Shown piece after piece: positions 7,732 through 12,033 of a DNA stretch of 64,000 nucleotides. This stretch comes from Escherichia coli (GTDB taxonomy: Bacteria > Pseudomonadota > Gammaproteobacteria > Enterobacterales > Enterobacteriaceae): the NCBI RefSeq assembly GCF_036507355.1, contig NZ_AP027877.1. One strand, 5' to 3'. The translations under genes were made by a program, and so were the position numbers. Positions within the stretch are counted from its first letter, which is position 1. Each line of letters begins with the position of its first letter. The notes under the pieces are model-generated. The model was not told the DNA's origin and searched no databases. It saw only the letters and a list, made by a program, of their open reading frames with translations.

Positions 7732-8283
7732 ATGCAAGATTCCATTCTGACGACCGTAGTGAAAGATATCGACGGTGAAGTGACCACGCTGGAGAAGTAC
7801 GCCGGTAATGTGCTGTTGATTGTCAATGTCGCCTCAAAGTGTGGCTTAACGCCGCAATATGAGCAGTTGGAGAATATTCAGAAAGCCTGGGCCGATCGAG
7901 GTTTTGTGGTGCTGGGATTCCCGTGCAACCAGTTTCTGGAACAAGAACCGGGCAGCGATGAAGAGATTAAAACTTACTGTACCACCACATGGGGGGTGAC
8001 GTTCCCGATGTTCAGTAAGATTGAAGTTAACGGCGAAGGACGCCATCCGCTGTATCAAAAATTGATTGCCGCAGCGCCGACCGCAGTCGCGCCGGAAGAG
8101 AGCGGATTCTATGCCCGTATGGTCAGCAAAGGTCGTGCACCGCTGTACCCTGATGATATTTTATGGAATTTTGAGAAATTTTTAGTTGGCAGGGACGGAT
8201 TGGTCATCCAGCGTTTTTCCCCGGATATGACGCCGGAAGATCCCATTGTGATGGAAAGCATTAAACTGGCGTTGGCAAAATAA
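7732..8283 (+). CDS. btuE: Glutathione peroxidase-family peroxiredoxin
   Basis: 183-aa protein with the CGLTPQY peroxidase motif. Confidence 0.92.
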
Positions 8284-9032
8284 TGTCTATTGTGATGCAG
8301 TTACAGGATGTTGCGGAATCTACCCGCCTGGGGCCGCTTTCTGGCGAGGTTCGGGCTGGGGAGATCCTGCATCTGGTGGGGCCGAATGGCGCGGGTAAGA
8401 GTACCTTACTGGCGCGAATGGCCGGAATGACCAGCGGTAAGGGAAGCATTCAGTTCGCGGGGCAACCACTGGAAGCATGGTCCGCAACAAAACTCGCGCT
8501 GCATCGCGCCTATCTTTCACAACAGCAGACGCCGCCGTTTGCAATGCCGGTCTGGCACTACCTGACACTGCATCAGCACGATAAAACGCGTACCGAACTA
8601 CTGAATGATGTCGCAGGGGCGCTGGCTCTTGATGACAAACTCGGACGTAGCACCAATCAACTTTCCGGCGGTGAATGGCAACGCGTACGTCTTGCTGCGG
8701 TGGTGCTGCAAATCACACCACAAGCCAATCCCGCAGGCCAATTGCTGCTTCTTGATGAGCCGATGAACAGTCTTGATGTTGCGCAACAAAGTGCGTTAGA
8801 CAAAATTCTGAGCGCGCTGTGTCAGCAAGGACTGGCGATTGTGATGAGCAGTCACGATCTCAACCACACATTGCGTCATGCGCATCGGGCGTGGTTGCTA
8901 AAAGGTGGAAAAATGCTGGCCAGTGGACGCAGAGAAGAGGTGCTCACGCCGCCAAATCTGGCGCAGGCCTATGGGATGAATTTTCGCCGTCTGGATATCG
9001 AAGGTCACAGAATGCTGATTTCGACCATCTGA
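8283..9032 (+). CDS. btuD: Vitamin B12 ABC transporter ATPase
   Basis: 249 aa with Walker [10 protein letters not shown] and signature LSGGEWQR; ATG overlaps the btuE stop (ATAATG). Confidence 0.93.
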
Positions 9033-9109: not shown

Positions 9110-9574
9110 ATGCGTTTCTGCCTTATTTTGATCACAGCACTGTTTCTGGCCGGGTGTAGCCACCATAAAGCACCGCCGCCAAATGCCAGACTTTCTGATT
9201 CGATTACCGTTATTGCCGGTTTGAACGACCAGCTACAAAGCTGGCATGGCACGCCGTATCGTTATGGTGGCATGACGCGGGGCGGTGTGGACTGTTCGGG
9301 ATTTGTGGTTGTGACGATGCGCGATCGTTTCGATTTGCAGCTGCCCCGAGAAACCAAAGAACAAGCCTCTATCGGCACGCAAATTGATAAAGACGAGTTG
9401 CTGCCTGGTGACCTGGTCTTTTTCAAAACGGGTTCCGGACAAAATGGTTTGCATGTAGGTATTTACGATACCAACAACCAATTTATCCACGCCTCTACCA
9501 GCAAGGGAGTGATGCGTTCCTCACTTGATAATGTCTATTGGCAGAAAAATTTCTGGCAGGCGAGACGAATCTAG
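9110..9574 (+). CDS. nlpC: NlpC/P60-family lipoprotein (peptidoglycan endopeptidase)
   Basis: 154 aa; lipobox LFLAGCS and catalytic Cys context DCSGFV. Confidence 0.9.
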   Translation: MRFCLILITALFLAGCSHHKAPPPNARLSDSITVIAGLNDQLQSWHGTPYRYGGMTRGGVDCSGFVVVTMRDRFDLQLPRETKEQASIGTQIDKDELLPGDLVFFKTGSGQNGLHVGIYDTNNQFIHASTSKGVMRSSLDNVYWQKNFWQARRI

Positions 9575-9820
9575 TATGTCGAAAAATGGACGGTGATGAT
9601 ACATCGCCGTCCATTTACTCCTGAATACAGTAGTATTTTGCAGACAACAATTCCGTAAATGGATTATTCGTTTATAATCAGGATAATCTAAAAAAAGGAC
9701 CCCTGAAAAAGTGGTTAACATGGAACAAATGAAAGTTACTCCTTATGTAATTGTTATGTCTTATGGCCTCATCCCTTTTAGCCGGATACTGAAAAACATC
9801 CTTCGAGAGGGACGGTTACC

Positions 9821-10534
9821 ATGAAGATTTTTTTGGAGAATCTTTATCATTCTGATTGCTATTTCCTGCCGATAAGAGATAACCAGCAAGACCTTGTCGG
9901 CGTTGAGTTAATTACCCATTTCTCCAGTGAAGATGGTACGGTTCGTATCCCGACGAGTCGGGTTATAGCGCAACTTACCGAGGAGCAACATTGGCAATTA
10001 TTTTCAGAGCAGTTGGAATTACTAAAATCATGCCAACATTTTTTTATTCAACATAAACTCTTTGCCTGGCTTAATTTAACGCCACAAGTGGCTACATTAT
10101 TATTAGAGAGGGATAATTACGCAGGCGAACTATTAAAATATCCGTTTATTGAACTGTTGATTAATGAGAATTACCCGCATCTCAATGAAGGAAAAGATAA
10201 TCGCGGTCTTTTATCCTTATCGCAAGTGTATCCCCTTGTGTTAGGTAATTTGGGAGCAGGCAATAGCACAATGAAAGCGGTTTTTGATGGTCTTTTCACC
10301 CGCGTCATGCTGGATAAAAGTTTTATTCAGCAACAAATCACGCACCGCTCCTTCGAACCGTTTATTCGTGCGATCCAGGCGCAAATTTCCCCTTGTTGCA
10401 ATTGCATCATCGCGGGGGGCATTGATACGACAGAAATATTGGCACAGATTACCCCCTTCGATTTCCATGCTCTCCAGGGATGCCTGTGGCCTGCCGTTCC
10501 TATAAATCAGATAACGACGTTGGTTCAGCGATAA
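9821..10534 (+). CDS. ydiV: Degenerate EAL-domain protein, anti-FlhD4C2 factor
   Basis: 237-aa MKIFLENLYHSDCYFLPIRDNQQDLVGVELITHF...; AT-rich gene. Confidence 0.88.
   Translation: MKIFLENLYHSDCYFLPIRDNQQDLVGVELITHFSSEDGTVRIPTSRVIAQLTEEQHWQLFSEQLELLKSCQHFFIQHKLFAWLNLTPQVATLLLERDNYAGELLKYPFIELLINENYPHLNEGKDNRGLLSLSQVYPLVLGNLGAGNSTMKAVFDGLFTRVMLDKSFIQQQITHRSFEPFIRAIQAQISPCCNCIIAGGIDTTEILAQITPFDFHALQGCLWPAVPINQITTLVQR

Positions 10535-10557: not shown

Positions 10558-12033
<1,476 letters not shown>

Follow-up and report, generated by a model that had tools for sequence, protein, structure and literature searches.

A 31-codon upstream open reading frame (uORF) precedes the ydiV (rflP) gene of Escherichia coli, and its stop codon falls on the ydiV start codon. 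The frame has been kept open in most of the enterobacterial lineages compared, with peptides that differ widely between them. We consider that it probably works in cis, as a leader uORF in translational coupling with ydiV, whose own ribosome-binding site (RBS) is predicted to be weak and occluded by structure, and that its translation matters and its peptide does not. We found no description of the uORF in the searchable literature, in RefSeq annotation or among the entries listed in three small-ORF catalogues, and on this reading it is a new instance of a coupled regulatory uORF.

The ydiV leader in E. coli

The window analysed here is a stretch of 64,000 nucleotides of E. coli DNA. On its plus strand lie btuD (8283-9032), nlpC (9110-9574), an intergenic region of 246 nt, ydiV and selO (10597-12033), in that order (Table 1). 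The initial annotation had described an ORF from ATG 9720-9722 to TGA 9822-9824, and this ORF was present base for base, with 34 codons and the translation MEQMKVTPYVIVMSYGLIPFSRILKNILREGRLP. Its TGA shares the ydiV ATG at 9821 as ccATGA, and the ydiV Shine-Dalgarno (SD) sequence GAGAGGGA lies within its terminal codons, both as had been claimed. Several of those codons had been called rare. Judged by the window's own codon usage this holds for ATA, CGA and GGA, whereas the two CGG codons are merely low-usage. The RBS of the ORF itself had been considered weak, in agreement with a best anti-SD pairing of -3.3 kcal/mol before ATG 9729 versus -7.8 kcal/mol for ydiV. Nothing SD-like was found upstream of ATG 9720. 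A GTG at 9711 is likewise in the uORF frame and is not conserved.

In a single genome the chance of 29 stop-free codons is 0.165 (composition-matched shuffles). The ORF in one genome is therefore within chance, and it gains significance only through comparison across genomes. Of 5,417 complete E. coli genomes, 4,693 have a 136-nt leader with no more than one base changed, and all 11 E. coli alleles compared base by base retain the ORF, with differences limited to Y/S, V/I, S/N or one synonymous change. K-12 MG1655 carries an identical ORF except for a Y-to-S change, and RefSeq K-12 has no CDS annotated between nlpC and rflP. On the minus strand of MG1655 (NC_000913.3) the A corresponding to that of ATG 9729 is base 1,792,112. 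Within window positions 9744-9750 stands a TAT (Tyr) codon, in place of the TCT (Ser) shared by K-12 and the ten further E. coli alleles compared. The TAT variant also yields an ATGTAA start-stop pair (9745-9750) in a different frame.

Table 1. Features of the ydiV leader, in window coordinates.
Feature	Position	Strand	Remarks
TATAAT box (TATAATCAGGATAA), candidate -10 of a shared ydiV promoter	9673..9678	+	would put the 5' end near 9684
In-frame ATG of the initial annotation	9720..9728	+	three codons upstream of ATG 9729; not conserved
Weak SD-like GGA	9722..9724	+	4 nt 5' of the conserved uORF start; duplex -3.3 kcal/mol
Conserved uORF	9729..9824	+	ATG 9729, 31 codons (MKVTPYVIVMSYGLIPFSRILKNILREGRLP), TGA 9822-9824
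UCCCUUUU within the uORF (codons 15-17)	9772..9779	+	predicted to pair with the ydiV SD 9805-9812 in MFE and centroid folds
ydiV SD GAGAGGGA	9805..9812	+	doubles as uORF codons 26-28 (CGA GAG GGA)
ATGA stop/start overlap	9821..9824	+	uORF TGA on the ydiV ATG
Predicted hairpin pairing the ydiV AUG	9821..9847	+	9821-9832 with 9836-9847
ydiV (rflP), anti-FlhD4C2 factor, regulated gene	9821..10534	+	RefSeq annotation in E. coli genomes

Frame, start and stop across enterobacteria

We compared the nlpC-ydiV-selO locus in 21 distinct lineages, drawn from a selO-anchored genome scan (at least 10 enterobacterial loci) and from 12 further contigs. Coordinates are counted from the A of the ydiV ATG (0, window position 9821). 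The sample held E. coli, three Escherichia-like lineages (YdiV 81%, 79% and 62-63% identical to that of E. coli), E. albertii, E. fergusonii, three Citrobacter, Intestinirhabdus, Salmonella enterica, S. salamae, Lelliottia, Yokenella, Buttiauxella, Superficieibacter and four Enterobacter-like genomes or MAGs. E. coli ECJXMCRH7 (H30/H70; L004, NZ_CP067342.1) was left out as a frameshift-ridden assembly. Its btuE-nlpC-ydiV-selO genes are annotated as frameshifted or partial pseudogenes and the match to its leader spans 69 nt at just 85%, so that either the assembly is of low quality or the locus has decayed. The two neighbouring proteins evolve far more slowly than YdiV: E. coli and E. albertii share 97% identity in NlpC and 92% in SelO against 73% in YdiV, and the YdiV of E. 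fergusonii is only 49% identical to that of E. coli.

The 92 nt before the ydiV ATG align without indels in 15 taxa, and the intergenic region as a whole is anywhere between 244 and 1268 nt long. When all six frames were read across the 30 codons between -92 and -3 in 19 taxa, 3 stop codons fell in the uORF frame (36, 3 and 55 in the three plus-strand frames; 26, 45 and 37 in the minus-strand frames). The numbers of stop-free taxa in the six frames are 2, 16, 1, 3, 0 and 3, the uORF frame being open in 16/19. Among 12 lineages with a median pairwise identity of 46% and a maximum of 69%, 11 were stop-free against an expectation of 0.12-0.27 per lineage (Poisson-binomial P = 1e-7, lineages taken as independent). 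An ancestry-aware null, in which a stop-free ancestor was mutated to the observed divergence of each lineage, gave P = 2e-6 to 5e-5. The initial annotation had suggested looking for the frame in other enterobacteria, and these results indicate that selection across species holds it open. An antisense gene was rejected as the reason for the open frame, since all three minus-strand frames contain stops. Yokenella has two alternative frames open, which makes its case ambiguous.

The start proposed earlier, ATG 9720, did not hold up. An ATG at the corresponding position -101 occurs only in E. coli, lineage L088, Superficieibacter and Yokenella, and it overlaps the GGA; we therefore prefer ATG 9729 on the basis of its position across taxa. 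An ATG stands at exactly -92 (window 9729) in 13 of the 21 taxa, and two others have GTG or TTG there, both with a further ATG in frame two codons earlier. Four Escherichia-clade lineages have the start ATG displaced by 1-6 nt. The codon directly 3' of the start is usually AAA or AAG. GGA, AGGA or GGGA is found 2-5 nt 5' of the start in 17 of the 21 taxa, and the motif is absent from the two start-less taxa (L009 and L024) and from both Salmonella lineages.

At the other end, the uORF stop lies on the ydiV ATG in 16 of the 21 taxa, as an ATGA overlap (12 taxa), as TAATG (both Salmonella) or as TGATG (C. amalonaticus and L102). In two more taxa it is no further than 14 nt away: 3 nt before the ydiV ATG in L089, and 14 nt before it in E. 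albertii following a 1-nt deletion. A short same-strand ORF that ends at or beside the main start codon is the configuration of translationally coupled regulatory uORFs. Alignment of the leaders shows the start, SD-like and stop geometry to be conserved. The initial annotation had seen in the leader an arrangement suited to coupling or stalling. The coupling geometry stands, in that frame, start and stop position recur beyond chance; rare-codon stalling found no support.

The uORF has been lost in a few lineages. In E. fergusonii (L087) it is cut to a 5-codon remnant. L009 has CTG at -92, no GGA and gained in-frame stops, and L024 has CTA at -92 and no GGA. Joint loss of the start and the GGA, with the gain of stops in L009, looks like loss of a whole functional unit. 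Truncation in E. fergusonii and absence from the two Enterobacter-like lineages further suggest that the uORF is dispensable in some backgrounds. These three lineages are natural uORF knock-outs.

The encoded peptides are highly divergent among taxa and show no codon-position periodicity. Mean pairwise identity at the three codon positions was 0.45/0.48/0.48 for the uORF and 0.62/0.69/0.36 for the first 30 ydiV codons. About one third of the residues differ even between close relatives (E. coli and L088; one of the two Citrobacter and the other). A shared C-terminal xGLAx derives from the conserved GGG(A/G)CTGGC of the ydiV SD region, and no C-terminal peptide motif common to the taxa was found beyond what this region encodes. 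Searches of Pfam and NCBIfam with the uORF peptides gave no match, and in a collection of 15 billion proteins they are present only as unnamed automated gene calls. These comparisons of aligned peptides and codons show no constraint on the uORF peptide sequence. A small-protein gene was rejected because the amino acids show no purifying selection and the peptides match no Pfam or NCBIfam family.

Rare codons cluster within the last 12 uORF codons of E. coli; the other taxa mostly have 0-2 in their last 12. Stalling on rare codons was accordingly rejected as a conserved feature, the cluster being specific to E. coli and the Pro-stop ending likewise not conserved.

Leader RNA structure and transcript extent

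The fixed geometry is not explained by an RNA fold common to the taxa. An Rfam scan of 9300-10200 returned only sub-threshold chance matches to unrelated families, with none at the gathering score, and RNAalifold over 19 leaders found 0 consensus pairs, on which ground a family-wide RNA structure was rejected. The same 19 leaders gave no conserved alternative RNA structures that might switch on stalling. Whole-leader folds were no better than shuffles (z = -0.43 and -0.98).

Locally, the predicted E. coli SD stem and AUG hairpin (Table 1) together reach -24.1 kcal/mol with a local z of -2.07. L088 and E. albertii retain most of these predicted elements, one both-sides change included; outside Escherichia they are not kept. 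Predicted accessibility is higher for the uORF RBS than for the ydiV RBS in 18/19 taxa, predictions that have no consensus fold behind them. K-12 transcribes ydiV and translates it poorly, which has been attributed to 5'-UTR structure over the start site, and the structure predicted here over the SD and AUG matches the one postulated (PMC3484386; PMC7157525).

The best conserved block of the leader is GGG(A/G)C at about -12; others are TGCCGGATATCAC at -35 and GGA at -100. For Salmonella ydiV (STM1344), a CsrA site has been reported around the SD (PMC4066749). The -35 block, (A/G/T)TGCCGGATATCAC at window positions 9780-9789 (-41..-32), was also seen in L006, L007, L008, L009, L024, L093, L094 and L095, so that both taxa devoid of the -92 start retain it. 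In at least 9 taxa it includes an in-frame ATG that would open a 12-codon ORF of the MPDITHNAGLAQ type, with no SD, and in several it reads CAGGAUG, resembling a CsrB repeat or a CsrA site. The E. coli block is AGCCGGATAC and has no start codon there.

A TATAAT-like hexamer lies -144 to -151 from ydiV in most taxa, Salmonella included, and at about -148 in E. coli. As a candidate promoter it has a poor -35 element, and it would place the 5' end some 45 nt upstream of the uORF. Scanning for sigma-70 promoters and terminators gave no plus-strand call in the leader, the TATAAT included. In Salmonella the rflP transcription start site (TSS) was mapped to -230 by 5'-RACE (bioRxiv 10.1101/2020.05.29.124750), which puts the uORF of that species within the 5' UTR. 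The Salmonella TSS and its TATAAT fall in a segment of about 67 nt (L085, about -265 to -200) that is absent from E. coli, so the two species may use different or additional promoters. In earlier bioinformatic predictions the TSS of E. coli lies over 150 bp further downstream than the Salmonella position (bioRxiv 10.1101/2020.05.29.124750); by these predictions it could lie inside the uORF. Downstream of nlpC there is a terminator-like hairpin at 9588-9612 (GGACGGTGATG / CATCGCCGTCC), followed only by ATTT (to 9616), a poor U-run, with which transcription could plausibly run on from nlpC into the ydiV leader. Either the conserved TATAAT promoter or nlpC read-through would put the uORF on the E. 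coli ydiV transcript.

Probable translational coupling, its alternatives and its meaning

We infer that the uORF is translated and is carried on E. coli mRNA. If it is coupled to ydiV, ribosomes would load on an A-rich, accessible site whose SD is weak and would then pass through the region that pairs with the ydiV SD, unwinding the helix. Termination on or beside the ydiV AUG would leave the site unmasked, allowing reinitiation at AUGA on an RBS that would be weak and structure-occluded by itself. The frequency of uORF translation would in this manner gate YdiV output. The least secure part of this reading is that the coupling is positive. Set against it are the weak uORF SD and its short spacing, the lack of an SD in Salmonella, and the SD-occluding hairpin, a component of the mechanism that was reproduced only within the Escherichia clade. 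Among the entries listed, the uORF has none in the E. coli small-ORF table of Stringer 2021, nor in the supplements of the Enterobacteriaceae smORF survey (Cryptic Microproteome) or the Salmonella small-protein census, and this absence has to be read with the poor expression of ydiV in laboratory K-12 in mind. In the searchable literature we found no paper linking ydiV to an upstream ORF, uORF or leader peptide in the relevant sense.

Translation of the uORF might instead repress ydiV, with ribosomes over GAGAGGGA and the AUG blocking independent initiation and keeping YdiV low; we regard this as unlikely. The stalling idea of the initial annotation is a variant of it, in which ATA, CGA, GGA, CGG and the Pro-UGA ending of the E. 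coli uORF would slow ribosomes further. The uORF does span the entire ydiV RBS, the rare codons are clustered at its E. coli end, K-12 yields little YdiV despite the transcript (PMC3484386; PMC7157525), and rare-codon decoding modulates the coupled uORF of uof-fur (PMC11550727). However, neither the rare-codon cluster nor the Pro-stop ending is conserved, and Salmonella, with the same overlap architecture, expresses YdiV well. An exact stop/start overlap is also the classic geometry of positive coupling. Furthermore, K-12 has essentially the same leader as pathogenic strains with active RflP (PMC3484386; PMC7157525), and the silence of ydiV in K-12 is therefore not explained by the uORF sequence alone.

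It is more doubtful still that the ORF is untranslated and its frame open through promoter elements, CsrA or sRNA sites, RNA structure, or chance combined with shared ancestry. The single-genome probability of 0.165, the weak SD signals, the conserved nucleotide blocks at -12, -35 and -100, the published CsrA site at the ydiV SD (PMC4066749) and the absence of the ORF from all three catalogues (among the entries listed) would fit such an explanation. Against it, stop depletion affects one of six frames only and survives the ancestry-aware nulls, and 90 nt that are poorly conserved (median pairwise identity 46%) are yet free of stops and indels. Nor is there a consensus RNA structure, and the start codon and the GGA were lost jointly in both taxa that are without them.

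It is highly improbable that the uORF encodes a small protein acting in trans, for instance a small, hydrophobic membrane peptide made together with YdiV. In favour of such a protein, the length is conserved (28-31 residues), the centre of the E. coli peptide is hydrophobic (VIVMSYGLIPF) and automated gene callers occasionally pick it up. Against it, conservation shows no third-position relaxation, about one residue in three differs between close relatives, the Salmonella peptide is not hydrophobic, Pfam and NCBIfam gave no match, and the shared xGLAx just mirrors the ydiV SD region.

Taking the uORF as a coupled leader element, its closest analogue by likeness of arrangement is uof-fur of E. 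coli, in which a uORF is translationally coupled to the regulator gene fur (PMC11550727). Both have a uORF of about 30 codons before a gene for a regulatory protein, and the uof peptide has no assigned function. Rare uORF codons have been proposed as a tuning device in uof-fur, as the initial annotation proposed for ydiV. Main-ORF expression is coupled to uORF translation in uof-fur, whereas for ydiV the coupling is putative. The uof-fur system is reportedly targeted by the sRNA RyhB, a finding said to be that of Vecerek and colleagues in 2007. An sRNA partner and iron-dependent decoding belong to uof-fur, which has no sequence homology with the ydiV uORF, and the ydiV uORF differs in having its stop exactly on the AUG in most taxa.

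Translational coupling at overlapping stop and start codons is familiar from operons, as at the AUGA and UGAUG junctions of the trp genes. The ydiV leader resembles these in its ATGA, TGATG and TAATG junctions and in a downstream cistron whose RBS is predicted to be weak or masked; it differs in that the upstream cistron is a 31-codon ORF with an unconstrained peptide and not a protein gene. Leader attenuators and arrest peptides (ermC/ermB, cat/cmlA, secM-secA, tnaC, speFL and toiL) likewise rely on translation of a short leader ORF to remodel the structure that hides the downstream SD, as is predicted for ydiV. In contrast to the ydiV leader, which has no conserved peptide or codon feature, they need a specific arrest peptide or sensing codons, and their leader stop is usually apart from the main start. 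An arrest-peptide or codon-sensing attenuator of the erm, secM, tnaC or his/trp type was rejected for ydiV, as neither an arrest motif nor a run of sensing codons is conserved. Among CsrA-controlled leaders, Salmonella ydiV is the same leader, with GGA at the ydiV SD and in the SD-like element of the uORF. CsrA may act on top of the uORF there, and its binding would not explain the open reading frame.

YdiV/RflP directs the flagellar master regulator FlhD4C2 to inactivation and degradation. Both the nutrient-dependent, bistable flagellation of Salmonella and the control of motility in pathogenic E. coli rest on it. Post-transcriptional control of ydiV has been known for more than a decade, with no cis element defined besides the postulated hairpin. 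Tentatively, the uORF could be the missing cis element of ydiV translational control, its loading (through growth state, CsrA at the GGA, or an sRNA) opening the occluded start; we hold this possible, if on the unlikely side. If true, the nutrient-dependent, bistable choice between flagellar ON and OFF in Salmonella would be set by uORF loading, which would also explain the silence of ydiV in laboratory E. coli, and E. fergusonii and the two Enterobacter-like taxa would have rewired their ydiV control. Conservation of a frame without conservation of its peptide can reveal regulatory uORFs that peptide-based small-protein screens miss. In the case of ydiV, a conserved, putatively start-coupled uORF is a concrete and mutable element through which its translational control becomes directly testable.
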